38,026 bases of DNA from Deltaproteobacteria bacterium (GCA_016218805.1 JACRCW010000086.1:1-38026), one strand, 5' to 3'; shown: positions 12,691-35,366, counted from the first letter of the stretch. The notes: generated from the sequence alone by a model not told the origin. Numbers and translations: made by a program.

Positions 12691-12740
12691 CGGCGGACAC
12701 GATCACGTCAGCCGTAGCGACCAACGCGAACGACACGAGG

Positions 12741-17166: not shown

Positions 17167-17182
17167 AGCATCGTGCGTGCCA
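17167..17182 (-). promoter_or_regulatory. sigma54 -24/-12 promoter (MCP)
   Basis: TGGCACGCACGATGCT, GG-N10-GC. Confidence 0.75.
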
Positions 17183-17236
17183 TGCAGCGGCGGTGCGCTC
17201 CTCTGGGGCGCGCATGGACGCGAGCCCGCCGAACAC

Positions 17237-17275
17237 AAGTGGCGGATAGTCGTTAGCGGCCGATGGAGAATACTC
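17237..17275 (+). promoter_or_regulatory. Putative enhancer (UAS) pair between divergent sigma54 promoters
   Basis: AAGTGGCGGATAGTC (17237-17251) and CGATGGAGAATACTC (17261-17275), similar to the motifs at 21954, 21975, 27184 and 35290. Confidence 0.55.
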
Positions 17276-17339
17276 TCACCCGCACATGGCCACCGGCCCG
17301 ATCCCGAACCATTCCTTCCCCAATCCGGCTCTCACGGTG

Positions 17340-17354
17340 TGGCACGGTGAGTGC
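17340..17354 (+). promoter_or_regulatory. sigma54 -24/-12 promoter (lipoprotein)
   Basis: TGGCACGGTGAGTGC, GG-N10-GC. Confidence 0.7.
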
Positions 17355-17404
17355 GTGACACTTGCCATCGCGGAGGTTCTTCCGCGCCCAGGAGGTCTGA
17401 CCGA

Positions 17405-17896
17405 ATGAACCGCGTGACGTTGTTTGGGGGGCTGTTGCTGGCCGGTTGCGGGGCGGGCTCGAACGTGGATGTGGAGGCGTACCGCGCCGCCAACCGTGAG
17501 GTCGCCGCGTCAGTCCAGTTGCACCGGGACCGCTCCAGGACCGCCACCACCACGCAGGACTGTGCGGACGAGCAACGCCGCTATGACGCCGACGTGCGGC
17601 CGAAGGTGGAGCGTGTCCGGACCCTGAGCGACGGCATGGACGGGTGCATGCGGTCGAGCGGAAGGCCCGAGTGGGCGGACATGGGGCGCATGTGCGATTC
17701 CATGATGGGTGAGTTGGACCGCTACGGATCGTCGGCGTGCGGATCGTCCGACCAGGGCGCGAACCGCACGGACGCGAACCGCCACTGCGACGTCATGGAC
17801 GGCTACACGGCGCGCGAGAATGAGCGAGCGGACAACGCCGGCCAGTGCGGGGCCGCGAACGGCGGCGGCATGATGGGCGGCGGTGGAATGATGTAA
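17405..17896 (+). CDS. Met/Cys/His-rich helical lipoprotein, candidate metal-binding protein
   Basis: AGGAGG RBS and MNRVTLFGGLLLAGC lipobox. Mature part has MDGCM, MGRMCDSMM, RHCDVM and a GGGMMGGGGMM tail. Confidence 0.8.
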   Translation: MNRVTLFGGLLLAGCGAGSNVDVEAYRAANREVAASVQLHRDRSRTATTTQDCADEQRRYDADVRPKVERVRTLSDGMDGCMRSSGRPEWADMGRMCDSMMGELDRYGSSACGSSDQGANRTDANRHCDVMDGYTARENERADNAGQCGAANGGGMMGGGGMM

Positions 17897-18029
17897 CGTT
17901 CGCCGTGCCACGCCCTCTCCGCGCGTTCCGGGCCGGCCTGCGTCTGCTCGCGGTCATCCGGAAGCATCATGAGTGACGGCCCGACGAGGAACGGGCGCTG
18001 CAACGGGTCGGCTGCCGCGTGGCCTGGCG

Positions 18030-18044
18030 TGGCACGCGCCGTGC
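18030..18044 (+). promoter_or_regulatory. sigma54 -24/-12 promoter (response regulator)
   Basis: TGGCACGCGCCGTGC, GG-N10-GC. Confidence 0.65.
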
Positions 18045-18072
18045 GGGTCCAGTGACCAAGGAGCCCCCAGGT

Positions 18073-19431
18073 ATGACCACCGTCCTGTTGGTGGAAGATG
18101 ACGCACACCTGCGCGAGGTGATGGCCTATCAGCTCCACTCCCACGACATCCCCGTCGACGCGGTGGCCGATGGACGGCTCGCCATCCGTTTCCTTGAGGA
18201 ACAACCGAACCCAGCGCTGATCATCACCGATGTGAAGATGCCCAACGCTGATGGGTTCAAGGTGCTGGAGGCCGCGCGGCGGCTCGCGCCCCGCACGCCC
18301 GTGCTGATGTTGACAGCGTTTGGCAGCGTGGAGATGGCTGTCGAGGCCATGCGAGCCGGCGCGTTCGACTTCATCAGCAAGCCGTTCCACAAGGACCAGT
18401 TCCTTCTCACGGTGGACAAGGCGCTGGGCCACGGTCGTCTGGTCATGGAAAACGCCGAGCTGCGCGGGCGCGCGGGCTCGGACGTCGTTGCGGTATCGCC
18501 GTCCATGCGTGATGTCCTGAATCAGGCCCGGCAGGTGGCGGCCACGTCGGCCACCATCCTGCTGCTTGGCGAGAGCGGCGTAGGCAAGGAGGTGCTGGCT
18601 CACGAGATCCACCGCGCCAGCGAGCGACACGACAAGCCCTTCATCGCCCTGAACTGTGCCGCCATCCCGCGCGAATTGCTCGAGGCCGAGCTGTTCGGGT
18701 TTTCCAAGGGCGCGTTCACCGGAGCGCACAAGGAGCGCGTGGGCAAGTTCGTTGCTGCGGACGGTGGCACGTTGTTCCTGGACGAGATTGGTGACCTGGA
18801 CGACACGCTGCAGGCAAAACTGCTCCGCGTTCTGGAGCAACGCATGGTGGACGTGGTGGGTGGCGCGCCGGTGGCTGTGGACGTGCGCATTCTTGCTGCC
18901 ACCCACCAGGACCTCGCGGCACGTGTGGCAGAGAAGCGCTTCCGGCAGGACCTGTTCTACCGGCTGGCGGTCATCCCGTTGCGCATTCCGCCGCTGCGTG
19001 AGCGCCCCGAGGACATCGCCGTGCTGTTCACGCGTTTTGTTCACTCCTACTCGGGCGCCGCGCAGGTGACCGTGAGTGAGGAGTTGCTCCGCGCCGTGGT
19101 GCGGCGCCCCTGGCCGGGAAACGTGCGCGAGCTACGCAACCTCGCCGAGCGGATGGTGGCGTTGCGCAAGACCGACGCGCTGGATGTCTCCGACCTTCCC
19201 CCCGAGGACGCGCCGACGACCGTGCACCCGGGGTTCCTCCGGCTGGATCCGGCGAACATCCAGCTCCCCGAGGAGGGAGTCGCGCTGGAGGATCTGGAGC
19301 GCGCGGTGGTCATCTACGCCCTACGTCGGCACGCGTGGAACATCGCCGCGGCTGCCCGCTATCTGCGTGTGCCGCGCCACATCCTCATCTACCGCATGGA
19401 AAAATTCGGCATCACCCGGCACGGGACGTGA
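18073..19431 (+). CDS. sigma54-dependent response regulator (NtrC/ZraR family enhancer-binding protein)
   Basis: Receiver domain (VEDD, ITDVKMP), Walker A GESGVGKE, GAFTGA, LFLDEIGD, FRQDLFYRL, WPGNVREL, and a Fis-type HTH. AAGGAG RBS. Confidence 0.95.
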   Translation: MTTVLLVEDDAHLREVMAYQLHSHDIPVDAVADGRLAIRFLEEQPNPALIITDVKMPNADGFKVLEAARRLAPRTPVLMLTAFGSVEMAVEAMRAGAFDFISKPFHKDQFLLTVDKALGHGRLVMENAELRGRAGSDVVAVSPSMRDVLNQARQVAATSATILLLGESGVGKEVLAHEIHRASERHDKPFIALNCAAIPRELLEAELFGFSKGAFTGAHKERVGKFVAADGGTLFLDEIGDLDDTLQAKLLRVLEQRMVDVVGGAPVAVDVRILAATHQDLAARVAEKRFRQDLFYRLAVIPLRIPPLRERPEDIAVLFTRFVHSYSGAAQVTVSEELLRAVVRRPWPGNVRELRNLAERMVALRKTDALDVSDLPPEDAPTTVHPGFLRLDPANIQLPEEGVALEDLERAVVIYALRRHAWNIAAAARYLRVPRHILIYRMEKFGITRHGT

Positions 19432-19440
19432 CCCCTGCGC

Positions 19441-19456
19441 TGGCCCGTTCCCTGCT
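19441..19456 (+). promoter_or_regulatory. sigma54 -24/-12 promoter (GMC operon)
   Basis: TGGCCCGTTCCCTGCT, GG-N10-GC. Confidence 0.6.
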
Positions 19457-19497
19457 GGGCGCACGTCTGCCCCCCGCAGACAACCAGGAGCGTGACA

Positions 19498-19760
19498 TGA
19501 AGGCCCTCCTGCAGCGCAGCAGCGCCAACGTGGCCATCCAATCCGGCCCTCCCGCCCACGCGGGCGCGCGCCCTTGTATGGGCGGCGCATTTTGTCGTCA
19601 GCAAGGTGGGTCAGGAGGATCTCCCGTGGACGACGACCGCGCCGGGTGTGGCCGCGCTCGACTACCTTGGGCTGGCGGCCTCCACGCCTGCCACCGGTTT
19701 CTCCGAGAAGCAGGTGCGTCCGCAACATGGGTGAGCAGTCCGCTCCAGGCGCGTGCGTAG
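19498..19760 (+). other. Small ORF, possibly a frameshifted membrane-protein remnant
   Basis: AGGAG RBS and ATG 19498 (MKALLQRSS...). A more protein-like stretch (LVWAAHFVVSKVGQEDLPW...VAALDYLGLAA) lies in another frame. Confidence 0.3.
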
Positions 19761-19763
19761 GCC

Positions 19764-20354
19764 GTGGACCGCAGCACCTGGCACCCCACTCGGCGGCTGT
19801 TCCTTTGGGGCGCCGTCGTTGGCACGGGCGCCGCCACGGTCGCCGTGCATGCGTCGGGATACGGCTGGCTGGCTGGCTTCCCGGGCGAAGTCCTTGCCAC
19901 GTGGGAGGGCCACGTGGTGGCTGCGGCGGCTGAGCGCCTGCTGAACCTGCAGCAGGGCGGGCCCACGCCGTCGGACGTGGCGCGCCACGTGGATCGATTC
20001 CTCGTCGGCATGCCACCGTCCATGCACCAGGACATTCACCTGATGCTCGGCGCGCTGGAGCACGGGACACTGCCGCTCGGTCTACGGTTCTCGCGGCTCA
20101 CGCGCCTCCCCGCTGCGGACCGCGTGAACTTCCTTGCGGGATTGCCCCAGCTGGGCACGCTGATGGCGCAGGCCTATCGCGGGGTTCGCGACCTGTGTCT
20201 GCTGGGATACTGGCAGGACCCGCGCACCTGGGCGCGTATCGGCTACGGCGGTCCCTGGGGGGCCAGCACGGCCAATGGGCACGCGCGACACGTCACCGGC
20301 TACGACGCGTTGGTGGCACCTGCGGCGGCGCTCCCCAGGAGCGCGCTGCCATGA
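19764..20354 (+). CDS. Gluconate-2-dehydrogenase subunit-3-like partner of GMC oxidoreductase
   Basis: Tat-like TRRLFL, RFSRLTRLPAADRVNFL, and RDLCLLGYWQDPRTWARIGYGGP. ATGA overlap with the GMC gene. Confidence 0.8.
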   Translation: MDRSTWHPTRRLFLWGAVVGTGAATVAVHASGYGWLAGFPGEVLATWEGHVVAAAAERLLNLQQGGPTPSDVARHVDRFLVGMPPSMHQDIHLMLGALEHGTLPLGLRFSRLTRLPAADRVNFLAGLPQLGTLMAQAYRGVRDLCLLGYWQDPRTWARIGYGGPWGASTANGHARHVTGYDALVAPAAALPRSALP

Positions 20355-21872
20355 TCTACGACGCTGCCGCGCTGCCGTTGCCCTTGCGCCTCAAGGCTGA
20401 CCTCTGCGTCATTGGCTCCGGTGCCGGCGGTGGCATGGTGGCCACCGTGGCCGCGGAGGCGGGCCTGAAGGTGGTGGTGCTGGAGGCCGGGGCGCTGTGG
20501 ACGCCGGCCATGATGTCTCAGCGCGAGGAGGAGATGTTCCCGCGGCTGTTGTGGGACAACGGCAGTCGGACAACGACGGATCGCGCGGTGAAGATCCACC
20601 AGGGCCGGGGTATCGGCGGCTCCACGCTGCACAATACCTGCCTGTGCAAGCGCATTCCCGACCCGATCCTCCGCCGCTGGCAGGCAGAACGGAAGCTGGA
20701 GACGCTGGATGCGAAACGCTGGGCGGACCTCTACGGGCGCGTCGAGACGAAGCTGGCAATTGCGGATATTCCCGAGGCGCAGGTCAACCGCCACAATCGA
20801 CTGCTTTTGGACGGGGCGCGCAAGCTGGGCTGGCGCACCGGGACGCTGAAACACAACCGGACCGGGTGTGCCGCAAGCGGTTTCTGCGAGATGGGCTGCG
20901 CGTTTGACGCCAAGAACAACGTGCTCAAGACGCTGGTGCCCAGGATCGTACGGGCCGGGGCGGACCTTCTCAGCAACTGCCAGGCGGTCCGGGTTACGCA
21001 CGGCGCGGCCGGCGTGACCGGCGTGGACGCGGTGGCGGTGCACGCGCGGAACGCATGAGCCAATGGCAGCGGTGCGCGTGGACGCCCCGCGGGTATGCCT
21101 GTCGGCCTCCGCCACGGCGACCGCAGCGCTGTGGCTCCGGTCGTCGCTGCCCGCGCCGGCGGGGACGGTTGGTGAAAACCTGCACATCCACCCGGCCGTG
21201 GTGGTGGCGGGAGATTTCGCCGAGCCGGTCAATGCGTGGCAGGGCATTCCGCAGTCCGCGGAATGCACGGAGTGGTTGGACTTCGAGCGTACCGACGGAC
21301 ATTCCGCGTGGATCGTGCCTGCGTTTGCGCATCCGGTCGGAACGGCAACGCTGGTACCCGGCCACGCGATGGCCCACGCCGCGCTCATGGAACGCTACCC
21401 GCATCTCGGCGTGCTGGCGGCCATGGTGCACGACGACACCACGGGAACGGTACGGCCCGACGGCGACCTCGGTCTTGCCATCGACTACTGGCCCAATGCG
21501 CGGGACCGCGGCGAGCTGGCGCTTGGTCTATGGGCAAGCGCCAGGCTGCTGTTTGCCGCCGGGGCGCGTCGGGTGGTCGTTCCCGCCCACCCCGCTGTTG
21601 AACTGCACAACGAGGCCGCCGCAGAACGGCTCCGGGGGCTGCCTTTGGAGAGGGGGATGATGGACGTTGTGGCTGTGCATCCGATGAGCACGGTGCCCAT
21701 GGGCGACGATCCGCGCACGGCAGCCGTGCGCAGCGACGGCCGTCATCACGGGCTGCGCGGCTTGTGGGTGGCGCACGGCTCACTGTTCCCGACCTCGATC
21801 GGCGGGCCGCCCCAATGGTCCGTGTACGCGCTTGGCCTGCACGTCGCGGAAGCACTCGTTGCCATGGGATAG
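20351..21872 (+). pseudogene. GMC family oxidoreductase, single +1 frameshift near 21050
   Basis: IGSGAGG, GRGIGGSTLHN and C..SGFCEMGC in the first ORF; GENLHIHP, HPMSTVPMG and SLFPTSIGGPPQ in ORF 21063..21872. Removing one A from CGGAACGCATGAG gives a continuous R-T-H-E-P-M-A-A-V. Confidence 0.88.
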
Positions 21873-21953
21873 CCGCCGCGCGAGGGCAGCGCGCGATCGC
21901 CGGTGCGTCAGGAAACCAACGCGTGTAACGCGCGTGCTCCGCGGATGCGCTGA

Positions 21954-21994
21954 AAGCGGGGAATAGTCACCGAAGACTGGCGAATAGTCTTCAA
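21954..21994 (+). promoter_or_regulatory. Putative enhancer (UAS): tandem GAATAGTC at a 21-bp period
   Basis: GAATAGTC at 21961 and 21982. The second lies within the palindrome GAAGACT-N7-AGTCTTC (21972-21992). Confidence 0.7.
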
Positions 21995-22032
21995 CCAGGG
22001 CGCGCGGCACACCGGGAACGCGGCCGTCCTGT

Positions 22033-22048
22033 TGGCACGCTGTTGGCT
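22033..22048 (+). promoter_or_regulatory. sigma54 -24/-12 promoter
   Basis: TGGCACGCTGTTGGCT, GG-N10-GC. Confidence 0.7.
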
Positions 22049-22131
22049 GATGGGGCGCACGCCGCCCAGTGCGGGCGGTGGAGCCGCGCCAGAGCGGACG
22101 GCTGGCCACGACAAAGAAGAGGACGGCGGCG

Positions 22132-24555
22132 ATGGTGGCTCATGGCAAGTACCTTCTGTGCGGCGTTTCCCTGTTGGCGGCATGTGCCGATCCGGTGGAC
22201 CTGCCGCTGGGGCAGCGCGAGTTGGATGTGTTCTTCCGTCACAGCGATTGGCGTCCGCGGACCGACACGCGCGTGGACGTGACCCAGGCTCCACCGTCGA
22301 AAGTGGAGCGCTTCGCAGTCTCCACGGTCGTCGGCGAGGTCAAGGTCATTGAGGGCGACAGCACCAACGTGTCGGCGTTGGCTGGCCAGGGAGGCAGCGG
22401 GTTCGGCCTGCGCATGGACCAGGGACGTCAGGATCTTCCGCGCATCACGCGCCAGGTGGTCGAGGAGGAGGGCGACCATTTCGACTTCATCGTCGTGTTT
22501 CCGTCGTTCGATGACCTGTCCAACCCGGGATTCGCGTACTTCTCCACGATCAAGGCAACGGAGTCTGGCACCGGCCAGGAGCCGGTGGACATGAGCGACC
22601 TATTTGGCTCAGCGGGGAGACTGCAGGGATTTCTCAACATGAACCGTCCCGGCGCGTACACCCAGGTGGACGGCCTGCCGATCACCAACGAGGCTTCCGC
22701 CGCCTACCCGATCATGGGTCAGGAACTCACCCACCGCTGGCTCGCCTTTGCAATGGTGCGGAAGGACGGCCTGGACAACGGCCAGGTGAGCGATGTGCTG
22801 CTGGGGCGCGACGCGGCGCACTGGTCCGCGCTCATGCACACCGGACCCGCCAACATGAACGGTGAGGTGTACACGTCCGTGCAGGACGGGATTGCGTGGA
22901 AGGACAATGGCAACGGCACATTCACCGCGGTGGAGGTCTTCAGTGACCAGCAGTTCAACATTTCGCCGCGTGCGCGTTTCTCCACACTTGACCTGTACTT
23001 GATGGGCTTCAACGCCGTTGAGGAAGTTGACCCGTTCTTTGTGATCACCGGCGCACGCTACGGGGGGCAAGCCGTGACTGCCACCAGCGTGCTGCGCCGC
23101 GGGCTCACGGTGTCGGGTGCGCGCGTCGACCTGGGGGTGGAGCACGTCATCGCGGCGCTGGGGCCGCGCTCGCCGTCCAGCGCGGAGGCGCCCAAGGACT
23201 TCAACATTGCGATGGTCGTCATCACGCAGCCGGGCCAGACCGCCGCCGACGTCCAGGCGCTGGCGGAGGACGTGGACGCGTTCCGCCTCACGTGGGAGCA
23301 GAAGTTCAGCGCGTGGACGGGCGGCCGCGCATCCGTGTGCACCGCGCTGTCCGGCAACTGCGCCACGGCCCGGCTCAAGCTGCACGCGCCGCGGATCGCG
23401 GGCGCAACCGCAACAAGCCCGCCCATGCCAGGACGCCCGCTCAGCGTGGAAGTCGTCGTGGAGAACGCGGGCACGGCCGACTCGGTGGTGGCCACGCTGT
23501 CCCTGGCCACCGAGGACGGCGCGGTCACGCCGGCCGAGCAAAACGTTGCCACCCTGGCCCCCGGAGAAGCGCGCGCGCTGTCGTTCACCGTCACCCCGCA
23601 CGCCACGCTGGCCTGCGGCAGTTTGCTGACCATGGCGGCAACGCTGACCCCTGATGGCGTACGTCCGTTGCGGCGGACCGCGGCCGTCCCGCTTGGTTTG
23701 CGCACGGCGTTTGAGAATACGCTGGAAACGGACCCCGGCTGGACGGTGAACCCCGACGGGACCGACGCGGCAGCGCACGGAGTCTGGGCGTGGGGCGTGC
23801 CGCAACGCACGGACCTCCGCCGATACGGAGCCTCGCAGATCATCGGCCAGCCGGGGGAGGACGCATCCCCCGTTGGAGACCGCGGGTTCTTCACGGATCC
23901 CGGGACGGAGGGCGCGGACCCCGAGGACATCGGGCTGAATGACGTGGATGACGGTGTGACCACGGTCCAGTCCGAGGCCATGGACGTGGGCGGCCTGATC
24001 GACCCGGTCCTGCGGTGGCGGACCTGGCACTCGGCGCTTGTCATTGATGTCCAGGCCGGGGAACTGCGGCTGGGCGTGGGCGACGACTTGGTAACGTTGC
24101 TGAGCGTGGATGAAGGGGATTGGATCGAAGTCGACCGGGACGACACCAACGAGTTCACGTGGCGGGAGAAGAGCGTGCGCCTGGCGGATGTTGCCGCGAC
24201 GGCGCGAACGGTCAGACTCCGCTTCGTCGTCGGCGACATGGGCGATGAGCAGAACGTCGTTGAGGCGGGCGTGGACGACGTGGTCATCACGGAGCTTGCC
24301 GACGGGTGCCCCGGCACGGAACCTCTACCCGCGGATGGCGGCGTGGCTGCGCCGGACGCCGGCGGCTCACCTGCTGATGGGAGAGGCGGCGCGCTTGCCT
24401 GGAAATGCGCGTGCGCATTGGCCGGCGGCGGAACCTCCTGGGCATCCGTGGCGGTGATGGCGGGCGTGATTGCCCTTCTGCGCCGGCGGCGGCGCAGCAC
24501 TGGGGCGCTGCCCACATGCGCACGCGTTTCCGGGAGGTCTGCAATGGGCTCGTGA
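22132..24555 (+). CDS. Large surface protein: zincin-like domain, CARDB/Ig-like domain, jelly-roll-like domain, MYXO-CTERM-like tail
   Basis: LLAAC lipobox, GQELTHRW...LLGRDAAHWS, FSTLDLYLMG, VEVVVENAGTADS (CARDB-like), and C-terminal CACALAGG + hydrophobic helix + RRRRR. Confidence 0.75.
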   Translation: MVAHGKYLLCGVSLLAACADPVDLPLGQRELDVFFRHSDWRPRTDTRVDVTQAPPSKVERFAVSTVVGEVKVIEGDSTNVSALAGQGGSGFGLRMDQGRQDLPRITRQVVEEEGDHFDFIVVFPSFDDLSNPGFAYFSTIKATESGTGQEPVDMSDLFGSAGRLQGFLNMNRPGAYTQVDGLPITNEASAAYPIMGQELTHRWLAFAMVRKDGLDNGQVSDVLLGRDAAHWSALMHTGPANMNGEVYTSVQDGIAWKDNGNGTFTAVEVFSDQQFNISPRARFSTLDLYLMGFNAVEEVDPFFVITGARYGGQAVTATSVLRRGLTVSGARVDLGVEHVIAALGPRSPSSAEAPKDFNIAMVVITQPGQTAADVQALAEDVDAFRLTWEQKFSAWTGGRASVCTALSGNCATARLKLHAPRIAGATATSPPMPGRPLSVEVVVENAGTADSVVATLSLATEDGAVTPAEQNVATLAPGEARALSFTVTPHATLACGSLLTMAATLTPDGVRPLRRTAAVPLGLRTAFENTLETDPGWTVNPDGTDAAAHGVWAWGVPQRTDLRRYGASQIIGQPGEDASPVGDRGFFTDPGTEGADPEDIGLNDVDDGVTTVQSEAMDVGGLIDPVLRWRTWHSALVIDVQAGELRLGVGDDLVTLLSVDEGDWIEVDRDDTNEFTWREKSVRLADVAATARTVRLRFVVGDMGDEQNVVEAGVDDVVITELADGCPGTEPLPADGGVAAPDAGGSPADGRGGALAWKCACALAGGGTSWASVAVMAGVIALLRRRRRSTGALPTCARVSGRSAMGS

Positions 24556-24575
24556 CACCAGGCTCAGTGTTGCGG

Positions 24576-24857
24576 CTACTGGATGATGAGCACACCGGTA
24601 ACCATGTCCATACCGCACGCGAAACGCAGCGTCCCGGCGGCGCGCGGCGCGAGGTGGATCTCAACCGGTTGACCCAATGGCAACTCGTTGTGGACGCCAA
24701 CCTCCTTGATGACGATCTCCTTCACGCAGGCCTTCTCCGTCTTGCGAGTGACCACCAGATGAATCGCCTCGCCGCGAGCCACCCGGACTTCGCGCGGGAC
24801 GAATCCCGCTGACGTGACCGCAAGATCGATCCGCCGGGTCCCGGCCCGGCCCGCCAC
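24576..24857 (-). pseudogene. Cupredoxin-domain protein (CupA-like), apparently 5'-truncated
   Basis: IDLAVTSAGFVPREVRV...VTRKTEKAC..EIVI...LPLGQPVEI...FACGMDM..G.LII. No signal peptide or clear RBS; in-frame stop at 24897-24899. Confidence 0.75.
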
Positions 24858-24889
24858 CGCGGCCAGTGAATCGGCGCGCCGACGCTGGA

Positions 24890-25329
24890 GGTGCGCTTAC
24901 GAGCAGCGTCTCGGCGAGGAAATCCGCCGCGCGCGCCGTTTTGATCGTCCGCTGGCCGTTGCGGTGCTTGACCTCGTGCAGTTCGCCGCCCGGAACCGTG
25001 CACTGGACCAGCTGGCTGCGGGCCGCGCGCTCCGGGAACTGGCGGACCGCCTCCGCGCCCAGTTGCGTGCCCACGACGTTGTCGCGCGGTTCTGTGCCGA
25101 CGAGTTCTGCGTGCTCATGCCCGACACCAGCGTGGATGCGGCGCACGTGGCGCTGGAGCGGATGGCGGGGGCGCTGCACTCCTTGTCGCCACCGGTCTCT
25201 GCATCCCCCCCATGCGCGCTGGGCGTCGGCCTGAGTGTCCTGGAGCCGGGGGATGATGTTGCAACGCTGGTGAAACGCGCCCAGGACGCCTTGGAGGCCG
25301 CAAAGCACCACGGCGACGGCGGACGCTGA
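24890..25329 (+). pseudogene. Degenerate, 5'-truncated GGDEF domain
   Basis: RLGEEIRRARRFDRPLAVAVLDL...DVVARFCADEFCVLMP...LVKRAQDALEAAK. The active site reads CADEF and the N-terminal D.LTGL.N is missing. Confidence 0.75.
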
Positions 25330-25355
25330 ACCCTCGCATCGCCCGGCTCCGGGCA

Positions 25356-26389
25356 TCAGCGGGTGATCACATCCGGACGCCTTCCCGGGAGCCAGACACG
25401 GAACGTGGTGCCGACTCCGGGCGTGCTCGACATGTCCACCGTGCCGCCATGCTCCTCAATGATCCGCTTGCAGATGGAGAGTCCGAGTCCGGTACCCCTG
25501 TCCTCCGGTTTTGTGGTGAAGAATGCCTCGAAAACCCTCCGTTGAAGATGCGCGGGAATTCCCGTTCCTGAGTCTGTCACCTCTGTTGCCACCCCCCGCC
25601 GGCGTGGGCCGTGGTGACCGCGAGGTGGCCTCCGGTCTCCATGGCGTCCAGGGCGTTTCTGAACAGGTTCATGAAGACCTGCAGCAGTTCAGCGCGGTTG
25701 CCCTCAACGGACGACTGAGTGGCACCGAGACCAAGGCTGACCCGCACTCCCTGCGCGGCGAACGCGGTGGAGTTCAACCGGATGCCGTCCTGGAGGACTT
25801 CGTGGAGGTCCAGCACTGCCCGCTCTCCGCTGGTGACCCGGGAGAACCGGCGGACCGATTGGACGAGCGCGCGCAGTCGTTGCAACTGCTCGCACACGTC
25901 GGCCCACGGGCTGCTCGCCCGCTCGGAGGGGACGATCTCGTCGAGTTCGGCGTGGGCAAGCAGCATCAACCCGGCCAGGTAGCCGTTAACGTCGTGAATC
26001 ACAGTCCCTGCCATCAGGCCAAGCGTGGCCATCCGGTTGGCATGCTGCAGCTGGCGGAAGCTCTCCTGCAGTTCGCCATTGGCTTCGCACAGCGCAGACG
26101 ACTGCCGGTGCAGCGCGTCGGTCCGCTCCCGCAGGGAGGCCATCGCCAGTCCCACGGCCGTACCAAGCAACGCTCCCAACAGGATGAACGCCGTCCACCA
26201 TGGCAGGAGTACCGGGCGGAACGCATCGCGCACAGACGCCAACAAGGAGTGCTGCATCTGGTGGCACACCATGGCGTCCAGGTCCGCATGGGTCAGGTGG
26301 AACAGCACCATGGAAAACGGGGACAGCACAAAGTACCCCACGGCTGCTCCCACCAGGCCGGACTGGAGGAGGTGAATCCCCCGCTTCAT
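25356..26389 (-). pseudogene. Sensor histidine kinase, frameshifted at a G6 tract (25592-25597)
   Basis: Two TMs with a His-rich loop, H-box VIHDVNGYL and N-box QVFMNLFRNA in ORF 25577..26389. The D/F/G boxes (DSGTGI, FEAFFTTK, GTGLGL) are in ORF 25356..25592. Confidence 0.88.
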
Positions 26390-27087: not shown

Positions 27088-27100
27088 ACCTGTGTGCGTC

Positions 27101-27117
27101 AGCAAGACGCTCGCCAA
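27101..27117 (-). promoter_or_regulatory. sigma54 -24/-12 promoter
   Basis: TTGGCGAGCGTCTTGCT, GG-N10-GC. Confidence 0.75.
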
Positions 27118-27183
27118 GAGCGTGATCCCACTGATTCCGGCGCGAGGGCGCGCCCAACGGGTGGCCACGCCCGCCGGCGTGGC

Positions 27184-27198
27184 GACTATTCCTCATCA
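27184..27198 (-). promoter_or_regulatory. Putative enhancer (UAS)
   Basis: TGATGAGGAATAGTC on the minus strand, about 67 bp upstream of the promoter. Confidence 0.6.
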
Positions 27199-27423
27199 CA
27201 GTCGTTGAAACGACCTGGCGCGTTGGCCGGGCAATTGGCGCGTACGCGGGCCGGGGATCAAACTCGCGTGGCTCCGCTCCGCGCGCATCAAACCCTCCGT
27301 CGCGAGCCAGCCTCCAAACAGCCCGACGAGGGTCAGGGCACCTAGCAGGATCAGTGCCGCCCCGAGCCTTACCGCACGCCCGGACGGCCGCGAGAACCAC
27401 GGCGCCAGGAACAGAGCCGCCAT
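27196..27423 (-). CDS. Small membrane protein or fragment
   Basis: GAGGAGG RBS 7 nt after the GMC stop, and a hydrophobic LGAALILLGALTLVGLFGGWL segment. Confidence 0.45.
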   Translation of the reverse strand: MAALFLAPWFSRPSGRAVRLGAALILLGALTLVGLFGGWLATEGLMRAERSHASLIPGPRTRQLPGQRARSFQRL

Positions 27424-27430
27424 CCCCTCC

Positions 27431-28777
27431 TCACCGTGACGCGATCCAACGTTTCACGGCGTGGCCGACCCTCGTTGCGTGGGCGAGCAGTGTGAGGCTG
27501 GGGTGCCGGTCGCCGGGCGTGGGCATGACGGACGCGTCCGCGATCCACACGTTGGCCAGCGCGCGGAGCCGGCCATCTCCGTTGCAGGCCCCCGCGCCGT
27601 GGTCCCCCATCATGCATGTGCCGGCCTCGTGTCCGGCGCCGGCCAGCAGCGGATCGTGAAATGGAATGACGCGACTGCCCGGAACGGCCATCAGGTCCGC
27701 GATGGAGATGCACGCTTGCTTGATGTCCTGCGCCATTGCACGGTCGGCATCGGACCAACCCATGTGAATGAACGGCACCGGGCGGTCCCACGCGTCGCGC
27801 AATTCCGGGTGCAGGTCCACGTAGCGCTGCGGGTCGGGGAAGACCTCGCCCATGGCGTGGACCTGCGTCGCGCTCCATTGGTCGACCTCGGCACCCGGGA
27901 CCATCCGTTCGATGCCCAGTGAAGGGAGCGACACCGGCCCGGAAACCTCGACGGAGAAGCCGCCGCGGTAGGGCTGCCGGGACGCGTCGTCGACGTTCAC
28001 GAAGTTCTCGATCAGCGCCGCACCGGGGAACGGACCGCGGCCATCGCGCGGTGGCGGAGGAACGGGTTCCAGCAGAACAACACTCGCGACCATGTGGTCC
28101 GTGAAGTTGCGACCGATTCCCCAGCGCGCAGCATCCACGTCGCTGCGCAGCAGGATGCGCGCGGTCTCGACGGGCGAGGCGGCCAACACGATGGCGCGCG
28201 CCCGCACCTGCCGGCGCTTCTCTTTGCGCAAGTCCAGCGTCTCCACGCACGTTGCGTGGTGGCCCTTTGTCTCAACGTGCAGGGCCACCTCCCAGGTGCC
28301 CGCCCGCTGCGCCGCGGACGCACTGGTGGCATTCCAGGCGGTGGAGGGGGAGCTCATGGCGCCCCGCTTGGGCAGGGCCCGGGAGCCAATCTCCTCAGCC
28401 ACCCGGCGGTAACGTTCGTCCACGAGGCCCTCCACCACGCCAAGGCGCCGTTCGACGCGGCGGTACGCGGCAGCGAGGCGGCGCGCGCGGCGCGGCCACC
28501 CCGCGCGCTCCAGGGCGCGTTGGTCGAAGCGGTAGCACCAGCCGCCCCACAGCCAGGAGCGCCCGCCTACCGCCCGTACGCGGTACCAATCGTAAGAACC
28601 GCCGTCCGCTTTGAATCCCCAGGTGCGGCGGTCCGGCTCTGGACACGTTGCGCCGAGCTGCAGGCGCGGTCCGGCGTCCAGCAACCGCACGGACAGGCCG
28701 GCCGCAATGAGTTCCTCCGCAACACGCACGCCGCACAGCCCAGCGCCGACGACAACAGCGTCCCACGTCCGCGTCAC
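27431..28777 (-). CDS. GMC family FAD-dependent oxidoreductase
   Basis: VVGAGLCG, RVRAVGGRSWLWGG..YRF, LAASPVETARILLRS, GRNFTDH, HEAGTCMMG, and NVWIADASVMPT...PSLT. GGAGG RBS just after cusA. Confidence 0.88.
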   Translation of the reverse strand: MTRTWDAVVVGAGLCGVRVAEELIAAGLSVRLLDAGPRLQLGATCPEPDRRTWGFKADGGSYDWYRVRAVGGRSWLWGGWCYRFDQRALERAGWPRRARRLAAAYRRVERRLGVVEGLVDERYRRVAEEIGSRALPKRGAMSSPSTAWNATSASAAQRAGTWEVALHVETKGHHATCVETLDLRKEKRRQVRARAIVLAASPVETARILLRSDVDAARWGIGRNFTDHMVASVVLLEPVPPPPRDGRGPFPGAALIENFVNVDDASRQPYRGGFSVEVSGPVSLPSLGIERMVPGAEVDQWSATQVHAMGEVFPDPQRYVDLHPELRDAWDRPVPFIHMGWSDADRAMAQDIKQACISIADLMAVPGSRVIPFHDPLLAGAGHEAGTCMMGDHGAGACNGDGRLRALANVWIADASVMPTPGDRHPSLTLLAHATRVGHAVKRWIASR

Positions 28778-28787
28778 GTTCCCTCCG

Positions 28788-31700
28788 TCAGCCCGCGGCC
28801 GGCGCCGGGAGCTCCCGCCGGCGCCAGAGGAAATAGACGGCCGGGTACACCAGCAGTTCCATGATGAAACTGGTCAGAAGACCACCCACCATGGGCGCTG
28901 CAATGCGCTTCATCAGGTCTGCGCCGGTCCCAGCGGACCACATGATCGGCAGGAGGCCCATCATCGCGGCGCACACCGTCATCGCCTTGGGGCGCACGCG
29001 CTTGACCGCCCCATGGATGATCGCCTCCACCAGGTCGCGCTCATTGCGCAGCTCGCCGCGGGCTTTTGCCTCGTCGTGGGAGAGGTCCAGGAACAGCAGC
29101 ATGAACACGCCGGTCTCCGCGTCCAGGCCCATGAGCGCAATCATGCCCACCCACACAGCGATGGAGACGTTGTAGTCCAGCGCGTAGAGCAACCAGACGG
29201 CGCCCACCGCGGAGAACGGCACCGCAAGCATCACGATGGACGCCTTCATGGCGGACCGGGTGTTCATGTACAGCAGGGCGAAGATCAGCAGCAGCGTCAG
29301 TGGGATGATCAGCTTGAGGCGCTCACGCACGCGCAGCATGTTCTCGTACTGCCCGCTCCACGACAGACTGTAGCCGGTGGGCAATTGGACACCCGCGGCC
29401 ACCGCGGCCTTGGCCTGCTCCACGTAGGAGCCCACGTCGATCTTGGAGGTGTCAAAGTCCACGTACACGTAGCCGGCAAGCTGGCCGTTCTCGTCACGGA
29501 TCATGGCGGGGCCCTGGGCGAGCACGACGTCGGCGATCTGCTCCATGCGTATCTGCCCCTGCCCGGAGGGAAGTGGCAGGAGCACGCGGCGCAGGGCGGA
29601 CAGGTCCTCCCGGTAGTCCCGCGCGTAGCGCACGCTGACGCCGTAGCGCTCGCGCCCTTCCACGGTGATGGTCTGGTTGTCTCCGCCCACCGCGGTCATC
29701 ACCATCGCATTGGCGTCGTCAATGGAGAGGCCATAGCGCGCCAGGTCCTTCCGCTTGAGCACAAAATCCAGGAAGTACCCGCCGGCCACACGCTCCGCGT
29801 AGACACTTCGCGTGCCGGGCACCTGCTGCACCACCGCCTCAATGGAACTCGCGACCCGTTCAATGGTCTTGAGGTCGGCGCCGCTCACTTTGATGCCAAC
29901 CGGTGTGCGGATGCCCGTTGACAGCATGTCCAGGCGACCGCGGATGGGCATGGTCCAAGCATTGGAAACGCCGGGGAGGCGCAGCGCGGCGTCCATCTCG
30001 TTGCGGAGCTCGTCCTCGGTGATGCGGTCCCGCCACGCGGAGCGGAGCAGGTCCGCCAGCCACTCCGGCGCCCAAGACGTGTACCAGCGCGGGACAAGGC
30101 GCCACTGCCGCTCCGGCCTGAGGATGATGGTGGTCTCCATCATGGTGAACGGCGCCGGGTCCGTGGACGTGCCCGCACGGCCGGCCTTGCCGAACACGCG
30201 CTCCACCTCGGGAAACGTCATCAGGATCTTGTCCTGCACCTGGAGGACGCGCTGGGCCTCCGCCACCGACATGCCGGGCTGCACCGCGGAGGGCATGTAC
30301 AGGATGGTGCCCTCGCGCAGTGGGGGCATGAACTCCGTTCCCAGGGCCAGGTAGACGGGCACCGCGGACAAGACCAGTCCAGCGCTGGCCGCGATGACCG
30401 CGCGCGGATGGCGAAGGACGAACCGGCAGGGACCGTCATAGACGCGGTGCAGGAGCGAGCTGATGGGGTGACGCTCCTCGGAGTGGTAGGTGCCAACCAG
30501 TGCGGCGTTGGCAAGCCACGCGAGGAACCGCGGTCGGAACGTGAACGGGTCGATGCGCGCGAACAGCATCCGCAGCGCAGGGTCGAGCGTGACGGCGAGG
30601 ACCGCCGCGATGGCCATGGCGAGGTTCTTGGAATACGCGAGCGGACGGAAGAGCCGCCCCTCCTGGTCCACGAGGGTGAAGACGGGCATGAACGCAACGG
30701 CAATGACCAGCAGCGAAAAGAACACGCCCGGTCCAACCTCCAGAAGCGCCTCCAGCCGCACGTGGTGGAAGTCGCCCTTGCGCCCCCCGGCGACCCAGTG
30801 ATGGATCTTGTTGTACGCGTTCTCGACCTCGACGATGGCGCCGTCCACCAGGACGCCAATGGAAATGGCGATGCCGGCGAGCGACATGAGATTGGCGTTC
30901 AGCCCCATGAAGTACATGGGGACAAAGGCGAGCGCGACGCTGACGGGGATGGTGACGATCGGGATGACTGCGCTCGGGATGTGCCAGAGGAACAGCAGGA
31001 TGATGAGGGAGACGATGAGCATTTCCTCGAACAGCTTCCCCTTCACCGTCTCGATGGCGCGATCGATCAGCTCGGAGCGGTCATAGGTCACCGCCACCTC
31101 CACCCCGGCGGGCAGCGATGGCTTCAATTCCTCCAAGCGCTGCTTGATCCGCTGGATGACGTTGAGCGCGTTTTCGCCCGAGCGCATCACCACGATGCCT
31201 CCAACGACGTCCCCTTCGCCGTTGTAGTCAGCAATGCCCCGGCGCATCTCCGGGCCAAGCGCGACCTTGGCGACATCCTTGATGGTCACCGGCGTACCGT
31301 CTTCGACCTTCAGGACCAGGGACTCGAAGTCATCAATGGACTTCGCGTAGCCACGACCGCGGACCATGTACTCGCGGCCGGTGATCTCCACGAGGCGCCC
31401 ACCGACGTCGTTGTTGCCGCTGCGGACCGCCTTGATCACCGCGTCCAGTGGAAGGCCATAGTTGGCCAGCGAGTTGGGGTTGACCGTGACCTGGTACTGG
31501 CGCACCTGACCGCCGACGGTTGCCACCTCGGCAACCCCGGGCACCGCCTGGAGGGCAAAGCGCAGGTTCCAGTCCTGGTACGAGCGGAGTTCGTCAGACG
31601 AGTGCGTGCCGGTCCGGTCCACCAGTGCGTACTGGAACACCCAGCCCACGCTGGTGGCATCCGGCCCCAGCTCGGTCTTCACTTCTGGAGGCAGCGACGA

Positions 31701-32051
31701 ACCAATCTTTGACAGGTATTCGAGGACCCGCGTGCGGGCCCAGTAGAGGTCCGTGCCGTCTTCGAAGATCACGTAGACGTAGCTGAAACCGAAGTCCGAG
31801 AACCCGCGGATGGCCTTGACCCTTGGAGCCCCCAGGAGCGCCGTGGTGATGGGATAGGTGACCTGGTCCTCAATGATGTCGGGACTGCGGTCCCACCGTG
31901 AGTACACGATGACCTGGGTGTCGGACAGGTCGGGCAGGGCGTCCAGTGGGATGTTGTGCATGGACCACCACGCACCGGCCAGGGCGGCGCCGGTGGCGGC
32001 CAGGACCAACACGCTGTGCATGGCGCAGAAGCGGATGACGGCCCTGATCAT
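28788..32051 (-). CDS. cusA: CusA/SilA-type heavy-metal efflux RND permease
   Basis: [57 protein letters not shown] (Cu/Ag Met ligands), RVRPKAMT, and [11 protein letters not shown]. Confidence 0.95.
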
Positions 32052-33583
32052 CGCGCGCCCCCGCTGCTCAATGCCTGTAACGACGCCTTCAGGCGTGACT
32101 CCGAGTCAACGAGGAAGTTGGCGCGGGTCACCACCCGCTCTCCCTCATCAACCCCCGCCACGACCTCAACGAGGTCACCGTCCGAAAGGCCCAGGCGGAC
32201 CTCGCGCGGGGTGAACTTCCCTTGTCCCTGGGCAACGAACACGACGCTGCGTGTCCCCGAGTCAATCACCGCGTCCACGGGGATGCGCAGCGCGTCGTGC
32301 GGGGTGGTCCGCAACACCACCTCGCCCACCATCTCCGGACGGAGTTCACCGGGGTTGGGGAAGGAGAGGCGCACGCGCACGGACCGCGTCTTGGGGTCCA
32401 GAAACGGGTCCATGAAGGCCACCTTGCCCTGGTACTCGGTGTCCGGGAGCGCCTTGAGGAACAGGGACGCGGGTGCGCCCACTTTCACGTGCCGGATTTC
32501 CCGTTCGTAGACGTCGGCCATCACCCAGATCGTGGACAGATCGACGATCTCGTACGGCATCTCGCCCGCCGCCACGCTCATTCCGGGCACCACGCCCTTC
32601 TTCACCACCACGCCGCTGGCCGGCGCGCGCAACGTGATGGTCCGCTCCACCACTCCCGTCTTCTCGAGGTTCGCGATGTCTTCCGACGGTACGTCCCACA
32701 GCACCAGCTTCCGGCGTGCCGCGTTCACCACTGCCTCGCCGCCCGGCTTGTCACGCATGCGCAGGACGGAGACAAACTCCTGCTCCGCGGCCAGCAGGTC
32801 CGGGCTGTACATGGAGAACAGCGGTTCGCCGCGGCGCACGGGCCGGCCCACGTAGTCCGCGAACACACGCTCGGTGATGCCGGCAAAGCGCAGGTTCAGG
32901 TGGTGGACGCGGGTCTCGTCCACAACGACACGGCCCGTGGTGCGCCACGCTCCGCCAATGGGGCCGCGCGTCACCGGCTGTGTCCGCAGGCCGATCAACT
33001 GCTGCCGCTCGGGGTCCACCTTGATCGGGGCAAGTCCGTCCACGGCGGGAGCATCGGTGCGCAGGTCCTCCTGGTACACGGGCACATAGTCCATTCCCAT
33101 GGAATCCTTCGCGGGCGCCGGCGATGTCTGCGTGGGGTCCATGGGCGATCGGTAGAACGCGATCTTCCGCTCGCCCCTTGGCGACGCGTCTTCCATGGGC
33201 ACGAGCTTCATGCCGCAGATGGGACAGTCACCCGGGTGGTCCTGAACGATTCCGGGGTGCATGGGGCACTGGTACTTCTGCACCGTCGCCGAAGGCGCCA
33301 CTTCATCGGTCGGCACCAGCTTCATCCCACAGATGGGGCAGTCACCCGGATGGTCCTGGACCACCGTCGGATGCATGGGGCATTGGTACGTGTGCTGCGC
33401 ACCCTTGTGGACATCGGCGCTGCCGCCCAGCCACACGTAGGTGCCCGCCGCGCCGGCGGCGGCCCCGAGCAACGCGACCGCAACCAGCAAGACCAGCGGC
33501 ACGCGGCGCGGCGACGGAGTGATCGTCAGTAGCGCTTCCGGTGCTGGCGCGGACGGGAGTCCAGTCTGCGGGGTGTCAGTCAT
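32048..33583 (-). CDS. cusB: CusB-type membrane fusion protein with two YxCPMHP heavy-metal-binding domains
   Basis: Two YQCPMHP....[14 protein letters not shown] units, YRSPMDP...[21 protein letters not shown], and [11 protein letters not shown]. Confidence 0.93.
33198..33389. repeat. Intragenic tandem duplication of the heavy-metal-binding domain
   Basis: 33198-33275 and 33312-33389 are similar at a 114-bp offset. Confidence 0.85.
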
Positions 33584-34935
33584 GGCTTGCCTCGATGGGT
33601 GTTCTCGCCAAACGCAACGAGTTCCATGCCGGTCGCCCGCTGCAAGTCCGCGAGGCGTAGAGCGTACTCACGCTGCGCCTCCAGGAACTCCAGTTGATGC
33701 TCGCGTACAGCGCGAGCCGCACCGAGGAGCATGAGCACATTCCCCGTCCCGCTCACGTACGCGGCCTCGGCGGCCTCCGCGGAGCGGAGCGACAGGGGGA
33801 TGAGCTTCTCAGCATGCAGACTCATATGCCCGCGCGCGTGTTGGATGCCGGCCAGCGCCTCGTCCACATCGGCCTGAACGGTGCGCATGAGTGCTGCGGT
33901 GTTGGCGTTGGCCCGCCGCACCTCTATGTCCGCCGCCTGTGCCGCGCGCGACTGCTTCCACGGGTAGAACAGTGGAACGGGAATGTTCACTCCAACGGTG
34001 ATCATGTCCGCGGGCCCGAGCAGCGCGCGGTACGGGCCCTCGGACACCGCGACGGGCAGGCCACCCACCGCAAGCGTGTACCCGCCGGTCAGCGTCACGT
34101 CTGGAAGAGCGGCCAGCCGCTCAGCGCGCGCCCGTGCGGAGGCCGCGGCCACCTGCGCATGCGCGGCGCGAAACTCGGGGCGCCCGCGCAGCGCGTGCTC
34201 CAGCAGCCGCTCGCGCGAAGGAAGCGCGCTGACGACCACAACGTCCCTGGCCGCGCCCACTTCTGATGGCACAACGCCCATGAGGGCGGCCAGCCGCGCG
34301 CGTGCGACTTCCTCCTGCAGTGCGAAGTCCAGCAGCGCGCGCTCGGCGGAGTCACGTTCGGTTTGCGCGGCCAGCATGTCTGCGAGTGACCCGGTGGCGG
34401 CTTCCAGGCGCGCTTCAGCCGCGGCCAGCGCCCCGTCAAGGAAGTGCAGGTTGTCGCGGAAGGTCTTCCCGGTTGACGCGGCCGCGCGCAGGTCCGCGTA
34501 GGCGTAGGCCACGGCACGGTCCACGTCTGCGCTTGTCGTGGTCACCGTTGCATCCGCCTCCTCGGCCATGGCGCGCGCCTCGTCCGCGCGCGCTGCCCGT
34601 TTTCCTGGCCAGGGAAACGTCTGGGACGCGGTGACCATGACCGGGACCGAGTCCGGGCCGAGCAGCAACGTGCGCGCGCGATCCTGCGCCGAACGCCCCG
34701 GCAGCAGCGCTCCCTCCACGTTGGATAGGGGGACGTTCCAGAGCTGTGCACCCAGCTGGGGATCATCCCAGGCCCACGCCGCGGTGGCGCGGCGGGTTGC
34801 GGCCGCGGCACCAGCGCGCGCCGCTTCCACCAGCGGGTGGTGCGTGCGTGCGCGTCTCACGGCTTCCGTGAAGGAGAGCGGCTCCGGCGCCGCCAACGGC
34901 ACGAGCAGCGCCGCAAGAAAAGAAGTCAGGATCAT
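33580..34935 (-). CDS. TolC/CusC-type outer membrane efflux protein
   Basis: Signal peptide, [29 protein letters not shown], and AEAAYVSG. First gene of the efflux operon, with an ATGA overlap into cusB. Confidence 0.9.
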
Positions 34936-35201
34936 CTTCCCTCCGCCCGCCCCCACGGCGCCCCAAGCGCCGCGCTACGGCTGGGTGGCGTCATCTTCTG
35001 GAGGGGCCTGGACACTCTGGCAAGCCTTGGCGGTGAGCGAAACGGGGGGTGCCGCTCCATGAGGCGCGAAGCGGCGTACCAACACCGCGTGCGCAGGGGC
35101 GCGGATGGGCCCCACCGGCGTTGATGCTGAATGCACCTCCACGTCACATTTCGGTATCTCAAGTCAGCTGGGTGGGTCGTGGCGGGCATCATGGTTCCCG
35201 C

Positions 35202-35217
35202 TGCAGCGCGCGTGCCG
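35202..35217 (-). promoter_or_regulatory. sigma54 -24/-12 promoter (efflux operon)
   Basis: CGGCACGCGCGCTGCA, GG-N10-GC. Confidence 0.65.
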
Positions 35218-35268
35218 CGACGGGATTCCGTGGGATCGCACACAGTCTAAGGCCTGCACCCACGACGG

Positions 35269-35309
35269 CAGCGGAGAACAGGCCGCAACGAGCGATGAAT
35301 AGTCTTCAA
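35269..35309 (+). promoter_or_regulatory. Putative enhancer (UAS) pair between divergent sigma54 promoters
   Basis: GAACAGGC (35276) and GAATAGTC (35297) at a 21-bp period. GAATAGTCTTCAA is identical to 21982-21994. Confidence 0.65.
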
Positions 35310-35350
35310 GCGGACCGTGCCGCGCGGCCGGAAGAGGGGTGCTGTTGGCC

Positions 35351-35366
35351 GGGCACGCCACATGCG
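35351..35366 (+). promoter_or_regulatory. sigma54 -24/-12 promoter (cyclase)
   Basis: GGGCACGCCACATGCG, GG-N10-GC. Confidence 0.55.

Follow-up and report, generated by a model that had tools for sequence, protein, structure and literature searches.

The locus described here raises the question of whether a set of sigma54-type promoters lying among genes for metal efflux and redox enzymes constitutes one regulon, which regulator reads it, and what signal it answers. It lies on contig C43 of Deltaproteobacteria bacterium (GCA_016218805.1; JACRCW010000086.1), the whole of which, 38,026 nucleotides, is referred to as the window. The genome (6.43 Mb, 70% GC, 92% complete), DNA of which is present in groundwater metagenomes from one study, contains rpoN and approximately 34 sigma54 activator domains. 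The host is probably a myxobacterium, since a protein matching G001, the sole sampled relative in its family, carries the label Myxococcota. An initial annotation of the window proposed that eight GG-N10-GC (-24/-12) sites and an AT-rich 15-mer define a single portable, co-induced metal-response programme under a local NtrC-family activator. We think it likely that a local sigma54 regulon stands under the control of a copper-sensing two-component system, that this regulon has been rewired and has partly decayed in the window, and that the second of two GMC flavoenzymes (GMC2) is most likely a maturase of cysteine-containing peptides.

All six of the 15-mers and all eight of the GG-N10-GC sites are present at their positions; the 15-mers lie some 45-100 bp upstream of six promoters, and two of the sites are located between divergent promoter pairs. 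The motif was rebuilt from other genomes, with the window DNA excluded, from the eight of 13 loci at which a sigma54-like site stands at the operon head. A de novo Gibbs search of these eight promoters returned TG(C/T/A)AGAATATTCT(G/A/T)CA with an information of 20.3, as compared to 13.9-14.5 in five shuffled sets (width 17), and at most training loci the palindromes are paired at 22-24 bp. In 16 aligned sites the information is limited to 16 positions, with GAATA|KTC at the centre and T..A at the ends. The motif is a 16-bp palindrome resembling the AtoC box, TGnAGAATA(T/G/C)TCTnCA, often found as pairs at a spacing of 21-24 bp, and this unit replaces both the 15-mer register and the earlier choice of GAAGACT-N7-AGTCTTC as the best copy. 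The latter exists in the window and is the single copy genome-wide, but the GACT left half is found at only one of six sites; we therefore regard it as a by-product of two sites lying 21 bp apart. A ZraR-like GACT-N7-AGTC register was rejected on the same count. The 21-bp period, said to occur twice, holds for 21954/21975; the other listed pair, 17237/17261, is spaced at 24 bp, and the second 21-bp partner is a very weak, previously unlisted site at 35272 (0.6 bits).

When the matrix was scanned over the 6.43 million positions of the genome, the four best sites were C146:36854, C146:32072, window position 21978 and C146:32095, while window position 27180 and a site on C57 shared fifth place. 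C146 belongs to the same genome and carries a paralogous locus. The exact core GAATAGTC occurs 25 times genome-wide, including four copies in the 38-kb window contig, where 0.15 were expected (Poisson P 1.8e-5), and three at the paralogous locus. Enhancers of at least 12 bits were then paired with sigma54-like sites 35-135 bp downstream. Such a palindrome accompanies 10 of the 3,300 sigma54-like sites in the genome: six in the window (of 31 sigma54-like sites there), three on C146 and one on C42 (Fisher P 8e-11). Nine of the ten promoters accordingly fall in the window or on C146. The six window promoters are 17183-, 17339+, 22032+, 27117-, 35218- and 35350+. Column-shuffled matrices mark just 0-1 of the eight claimed promoters, as against 6 of 8 for the real matrix, and the proposed eight-promoter regulon is accordingly reduced to six promoters with an upstream palindrome beyond chance, those at 18029 and 19440 carrying none.

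The first palindromes in the window lie between the divergent sigma54 sites of the chemoreceptor-kinase unit (17167-17183, minus strand, 13.3 bits) and of a lipoprotein gene (17339-17355, plus strand, 15.1 bits). The copy common to both promoters (17264-17279, 13.1 bits) stands 24 bp from a weak one (17240-17255, 5.1 bits); in G001, a 24-bp palindrome pair is found at the corresponding place before the kinase gene. The third-ranking site of the genome (21978-21993, 20.9 bits), with a weak partner 21 bp upstream (21957-21972, 1.7 bits), precedes the surface protein promoter (22032-22048, plus, 15.3 bits), and a single palindrome (27180-27195, 17.6 bits) precedes that of the SRPBCC gene unit (27101-27117, minus, 11.9 bits). 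The palindrome at 35293-35308 (15.0 bits), whose very weak partner spans 35272-35287, is common to a weak site for cusCBA-GMC2 (35202-35218, minus, 8.3 bits), which leaves a 256-nt leader, and to the site of a cyclase gene (35350-35366, plus, 10.4 bits). The two remaining sites, at 18029-18045 (plus, 15.1 bits), preceding the activator gene, and 19440-19456 (plus, 11.9 bits), have no palindrome 35-135 bp upstream, the best scores being -3.5 and -8.5 bits, respectively. Since no terminator-like site was found between, both might be transcribed by read-through from 17339; alternatively, they could be served by looping. Taken singly, the sites at 19440, 27117, 35350 and 35218 are weak, with 1.6-11.5 equally good matches expected per 38 kb, and such matches are credible mainly through an adjacent palindrome or gene start. 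The predicted +1 lies two nucleotides before the ATG of the chemoreceptor (17154) and cyclase (35379) genes, three before that of the SRPBCC gene (27087), and similarly close to an ATG at 35189 within the cusC leader; possibly, these are near-leaderless sigma54 transcripts.

The activator (18073-19431, plus strand) is an open frame comprising REC, an AAA+ domain with GAFTGA, and HTH_8, a Fis-type helix-turn-helix (HTH); with rpoN in the genome, the full set of NtrC-family features is present. Its recognition helix, PRHILIYRMEKF, is the mark of a clade of 16 activators with the helix PRH(I/V/F)L(I/L/V)YR, which in a quick tree formed a single group (SH-like approximate likelihood ratio test, 98). 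A broader locus search with the whole activator mostly gave unrelated activators; from its 80 loci, L028 alone was taken to be orthologous. The sensor of the neighbouring histidine kinase was matched in 15 of the 301 genomes compared, 13 of which hold the kinase-activator pair, and the activator HTH was detected in 11 of 12 kinase-positive genomes and in none of 18 kinase-negative ones. The strict 16-mer is present in 11 of the 13 genomes with the pair versus 54 of 288 others, a reversed-motif control giving 0 of 13; in G001 (11 Mb) all three distinct strict matches fall on the regulator's contig. This co-occurrence with the activator clade agrees with the earlier suggestion that the motif is likely the enhancer of the local activator. 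Most probably, the palindrome is bound by a copper-sensing two-component regulator that has so far not been characterised in myxobacteria.

Several observations weigh against this assignment. The strict pattern is absent from two kinase-positive genomes, while several strict matches occur in G072, G077, G085, G096 and G057, where neither kinase nor HTH was detected; G072 alone has five perfect palindromes on five contigs. Another activator may therefore share the motif. A palindrome is found upstream of just one of 29 lipoprotein homologues, and although palindromes head cusCBA in several genomes, the copper clusters of family f11, in which GMC, peptide, lipoprotein, cupredoxin and cyclase-YHS genes occur together, carry no promoter-linked site. 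L127, which is among the eight promoters used for training, had been picked up in part by a core match, the matrix was symmetrised, which imposes the palindrome, and the genomes share kinship, so that counts across them are not independent.

The initial annotation did not recognise the motif as a described one. In the literature searched (subscription journals and bioRxiv supplements lying outside its scope) we found no description of the regulator, its site or the peptide family discussed below, and AGAATATTCT was not met in the portions of the copper and motif literature covered, a comparison that excludes the motif logos of PMC4641369 and PMC3333781, among which a matching Desulfovibrio motif may exist. 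The AtoC boxes of E. coli (NC_000913.3), however, score 15.6 and 12.5 bits on the matrix, so the box shape is known, though the regulator is not AtoC. According to the sections of PMC3118216 consulted, AtoSC resembles the present system in that its NtrC-family activator reads two 16-bp boxes of the form TG..AAT/ATT..CA, placed upstream of a sigma54 promoter. It differs in its acetoacetate signal and in the spacing of its boxes (17 bp versus 21-24); AtoC also lies outside the clade and has another recognition helix. The NCBIfam models for AtoS and AtoC gave 232 and 373 bits with the window proteins, below their cut-offs of 646 and 714, respectively.

A second potential reader is encoded on C146, where a paralogous activator, 67% identical and with nearly the same helix, is accompanied by an intact kinase; it probably reads the same sites as the window activator. 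Conceivably the window sites are read mainly by this paralogue, or by some other activator of AtoC-like boxes, while the local system is fading: three of the four best sites in the genome are on C146, the window kinase lies behind a broken chemoreceptor gene, and the promoter of the window activator carries no palindrome. We consider this improbable, given that the window kinase and activator are both open frames with their catalytic motifs present and that the pair groups closest to the single G001 system (quick tree). Under the paralogous regulon (C146, 35097-43566) stand cytochrome b/c genes and the gene of a plastocyanin-like protein. Similar genes are neighbours of the peptide-GMC loci at G085:C9 and L174.

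With the local pair retained as the likely regulator, the next question is what it senses. The kinase (13293-14549, minus strand; 418 aa) is an open frame with four predicted membrane helices followed by HisKA and HATPase_c domains; no HAMP match was obtained with Pfam. Among aligned relatives, leaving out four giant repeat proteins, H48 is conserved in 140 of 141, H59 in 143 of 143 and H96 in 137 of 142. PF13493/DUF4118 was found in some relatives, and a fold search returned kinase cores alone, none informative on the sensor, with ZraS as the nearest solved structure. The earlier mention of His-rich kinases applies to this conserved triad; the second kinase (25356-26389, minus) is frameshifted near 25593, and just one working kinase is left as a result. 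At nine of 15 other loci cusBA adjoins the kinase-activator pair, and in G001 palindromes head a lipoprotein gene, two multicopper oxidases and a YHS/HMBD P-type ATPase. The link to metal genes suggested at the outset is thus borne out by cusBA, multicopper oxidases and a CopA-like ATPase near the pair or its sites. Copper is the best reading of the signal, although the metal is deduced from gene neighbourhood only, which must count against the proposal. Three-His kinase, clade activator and palindrome together probably make up a copper regulon. A fusion of the three-His sensor domain with a domain that by eye resembles HD-GYP is encoded at L135 (9097-10185; G028:C1), directly behind cusA and a cupredoxin gene.

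Could the regulon be real but its signal broader, i.e. envelope, redox or zinc, as with ZraSR, and not copper itself? Histidine triads also bind zinc. Relatives are named HydH/ZraS by their sources, the nearest solved kinase core is that of ZraS, and the C146 targets include cytochrome b/c genes. ZraSR (HydHG) is likewise a sigma54 system associated with metal, its promoters form a divergent pair and it has a small exported partner, but its binding site and its sensor are different: no match to the matrix was found in the E. coli zraP-zraS intergenic region, and the NCBIfam models for ZraS and ZraR reached 200 and 334 bits, far under their cut-offs of 479 and 760. Across genomes, moreover, the targets are CusA-type pumps, multicopper oxidases, a CopA-like ATPase and plastocyanin-like domains. 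A broader signal therefore appears quite unlikely to us.

The closest copper-linked counterpart is CorSR of M. xanthus with its curA operon, a two-component system with a sigma54 activator (PMC3707914). In the passages covered, it shares with the present system several sigma54 promoters in one cluster and, as at G001, targets comprising CopA, lipoproteins, a cupredoxin and a multicopper oxidase. CorS combines a signal peptide and a single membrane helix with a periplasmic sensor and HAMP. The window kinase, with its four helices, histidine triad and no HAMP match, does not show this combination. The same passages give no CorR binding site. The copper-linked two-component system, which occurs in 13 of the 301 sampled genomes of the phylum and whose sensor is unlike that of CusRS or CorSR, now has a candidate binding site, candidate sensor residues and a list of putative targets.

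According to the preferred copper model, Cu(I), or Ag(I)/Zn(II), would bind the conserved histidine triad, located where the membrane helices of the kinase end on the outer side, upon which the kinase, as is usual in this family, would phosphorylate the receiver domain of the activator. Judging from the co-occurrence, the HTH would then bind paired copies of the 16-bp palindrome, spaced by two helical turns and lying 45-105 bp upstream of the -24/-12 element, and the AAA+ ring would open the promoters in the manner of its family. Outputs relevant to copper would be the kinase gene, cusCBA together with GMC2, the lipoprotein and, probably, the cyclase-YHS gene; local capture seems to account for the chemoreceptor, the surface protein and the SRPBCC gene. 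GMC2 would most likely mature a short Cys-containing ribosomal peptide, by a modelled docking and a chemistry that we infer, and its own precursor seems to have decayed.

The peptide/GMC family was overlooked in the initial annotation. GMC2 (27431-28777, minus strand; 448 aa), an open frame 10 bp behind cusA, is a candidate maturase of a peptide made on the ribosome and modified after translation (RiPP). On C146 a gene for a 34-aa peptide adjoins the activator and has its own promoter and two strong palindromes, and in G001 a 40-aa peptide with three CCG repeats adjoins the activator behind strong palindromes. Homologues of these activator-adjacent peptides led to GMC enzymes related to GMC2. 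Nineteen GMC2-family loci were found in 401 genomes, and when peptides were sought within the 1.5-kb flanks of the enzyme genes, 15 of the 19 proved to have a Cys peptide with a Lys-rich leader and a further two a different short Cys peptide; control loci gave 0.038 such peptides per 4.3 kb. The cores are RHCG, RCCG and GCCK/CCK, and ten of the 15 peptides have only about 12 residues. In metagenomes the peptide was present at three of seven GMC2-family loci, the other four matching the C-terminal part of the enzyme only. cusBA adjoins the GMC2-family gene at 8 of the 17 loci viewed over a wider range, and exporters are found at several loci (major facilitator superfamily; at C163 a drug/metabolite-type transporter, by eye). 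NCBIfam has no family for the peptides and none above cut-off for GMC2.

A model of the enzyme-peptide complex of G085, whose enzyme is 52% identical to GMC2, scored 0.67, versus 0.01 for the best of three controls. The score mark was reached by 116 of 157 solved pairs versus 2 of 215 mismatched pairs, counts that are approximate for this case because our own alignments and flavin adenine dinucleotide were used in the modelling. The runs showed at least 61% contact agreement, with a partner pLDDT (predicted local distance difference test) of at least 60, and leader residues 1-17 dock on enzyme residues 356-378. The model supports binding, i.e. that the GMC2-family enzyme may recognise the peptide leader. 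Linkage and docking together suggest an undescribed family of GMC-matured peptides, possibly a copper chelator.

A conserved-leader Cys precursor beside the enzyme is a property of the GMC2 family, not of the window itself. Here, the candidate is an 87-aa frame (19497-19760, plus strand) which has a promoter, ribosome-binding site and leader-like start, and has lost the Cys core and early stop; it is probably a decayed peptide precursor. In a DNA alignment with C163 it scored 100 against a shuffle maximum of 98; that with C146 was not significant. Other facts favour the peptide proposal less. By peptide profile the frame ranks 4 of 12,387 ATG frames with a ribosome-binding site (E 0.67, not significant), GMC2 in the window and its counterpart at G026:C101 have no flanking precursor, and the activator-adjacent peptide gene of G001 has no canonical -12 element.

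Maturation of peptides by GMC-family enzymes has a recent precedent in ThaO/TheO, which form thiazoles in RiPPs and were first shown to do so in 2026 (PMC13083261). In the parts of that report covered, a GMC flavoenzyme likewise acts on Cys of a ribosomal precursor with no ATP or YcaO, but the precursors are of the lanthipeptide type with GGC motifs, unlike the RHCG, RCCG and GCCK cores found here, the hosts are Acidobacteriota, and copper is never mentioned. ThaO/TheO are 528-553 aa long versus about 450 aa for the GMC2 family, the enzymes having been compared by eye. Bufferins (PMC11626156, in part), oxazolins and methanobactins are also Cys-modified ribosomal peptides which bind copper under metal stress; they are made by multinuclear non-haem iron-dependent oxidative (MNIO) enzymes, and bufferins have Sec signals, in contrast to the candidate GMC flavoenzyme and Lys-rich leader seen here. 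No link between a GMC RiPP enzyme and metal homeostasis was found in the literature searched.

The peptides might instead be unmodified metallothionein-like or regulatory leader peptides, beside an enzyme which oxidises a small molecule. Alcohols or sugars are the usual substrates of GMC enzymes, peptides of about 12 aa could be leader peptides, and ThaO/TheO, from what was covered of them, use Gly-Cys motifs and carry, by eye, a Cys cluster motif absent from GMC2. Such a reading leaves aside the conserved leader with repeated cores, the exporters at several loci, a linkage that is independent of orientation, and the docking of the leader on a conserved surface of the enzyme model; we judge it unlikely. 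Peptide maturation by GMC2-family enzymes remains our preference, and it exposes a compact candidate RiPP family consisting of one enzyme and one very short precursor. More tentatively, and with rather more doubt than conviction, one could envisage a copper defence of Myxococcota in which the three-His sensor and sigma54 activator induce efflux together with short ribosomal peptides, the smallest of about 12 residues; a stand-alone GMC enzyme would oxidatively cyclise their His-Cys or Cys-Cys motifs into thiazole-type copper chelators, the activator-adjacent precursor copies raising output under copper. If this is true, GMC-made chelators would be the flavin-based counterpart of MNIO-made bufferins and methanobactins. 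A GMC branch with other precursors, having a double-glycine-like leader and a core ending in FC(V/T)TPW, was seen at L181 and L182 (G390:C586, G262:C201); G390 has two copies of this precursor type.

Could the window hold one intact mobile island, with all eight promoters co-induced as a selected metal-response programme? Six promoters do share the palindrome; cusBA, GMC, lipoprotein, cupredoxin and cyclase-YHS genes cluster in G214:C269 and partly in G255:C17 and G289; and CusA shares 77-81% identity with copies from other families (f11/f15 clusters) and mostly 45-50% with activator-linked CusA elsewhere. The GC content at third codon positions of the island genes is 0.80-0.88, against 0.92-0.94 for DegT, cinA and a peptidase; genes left of the region also give 0.82-0.86. 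With two promoters lacking the palindrome and at least five genes broken or truncated (chemoreceptor, second kinase, first GMC enzyme, cupredoxin and GGDEF gene), intactness is hard to maintain. No tRNA, integrase or transposase was found in the window (50 of its 229 open reading frames were scanned for protein families), nor were terminal repeats, and the kinase sensor has no match in 72,556 plasmids. The targets, too, differ at C146, G001 and G026, and the single portable programme thus seems to us very unlikely.

Rewiring agrees better with these data. The f11/f15 clusters, which lack a promoter-linked site, also hold GMC, lipoprotein, cupredoxin and cyclase-YHS genes, and the surface protein has a paralogue on C91 (75% DNA identity) that keeps a similar core promoter but no such enhancer. 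We infer that copper genes from another cluster, with a few bystanders, may have been placed under the enhancer locally; the window would then illustrate the transfer of sigma54 enhancers onto unrelated genes. Contigs of run X1 (possible source reads) match the window without difference, an X2 contig spans the GMC1 break, again with no difference, and the beginning of the 19497 frame lies on an X3 contig.

Among the genes under these promoters, the methyl-accepting chemotaxis gene (14694-17154, minus strand) is broken, its start frame with the first membrane helix stopping after 157 aa and the dCache/HAMP/MCP part being in a different frame. The Met/Cys-rich lipoprotein (17405-17896, plus; 163 aa), a putative metal binder, has no Pfam or NCBIfam family, and an atlas search gave 0.84 at best and no family; its homologues, present in 30 of the 300 other genomes searched, adjoin the GMC family in four cases. 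A small gene and GMC1 follow at 19764-21872 (plus), GMC1 being frameshifted near 21040-21070. We label the small gene as resembling a gluconate-dehydrogenase subunit 3; it has no family match. The order of peptide remnant, small subunit-like gene and GMC1 (19497-21872) recalls the theB/theO pair. The GMC1 paralogue on C97, however, lacks a peptide, and its small gene forms a fusion with a different protein.

The surface lipoprotein (22132-24555, plus; 807 aa) matches CARDB, with a sub-threshold MYXO-CTERM match. It is followed by the cupredoxin fragment (24576-24896, minus), the N-terminal signal part of which is gone, and an overlapping GGDEF fragment (24814-25329, plus). The SRPBCC/polyketide-cyclase-like protein (26386-27087, minus) has a twin-arginine-like start; a search of five genomes for homologues of this protein, and likewise for those of the chemoreceptor, returned distant matches only. 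The cusC-cusB-cusA heavy-metal efflux operon (28788-34935, minus) consists of open frames and has the features of CusCBA-type RND efflux, CusA scoring 1033 bits against a TIGR00914 cut-off of 701. Three Met of CusA are presumably located in the motifs of Cu(I)/Ag(I) CusA. The 256-nt cusC leader contains an 86-aa frame (34932-35192, minus) whose stop overlaps the cusC start, with a Pro-Pro motif in another frame; perhaps this is a remnant of a CutF/DUF2946-like leader gene. Facing it is an adenylate/guanylate cyclase-YHS fusion (35379-36032, plus), served by the promoter at 35350. Other genomes have full-length homologues of this fusion in their copper clusters.

A 337-bp segment immediately downstream of the kinase gene (12698-13034) partially duplicates, at 91.8% identity, the 5' end of the gene for the DegT aminotransferase (7814-8154). 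Further away, the window encodes a Cys-rich exported protein of 729 aa with several STIG1-like repeats (1156-3345, minus) and a zinc-finger Ser/Thr kinase carrying TPR repeats, behind which comes an extracytoplasmic function-like sigma factor (8258-11856, minus).

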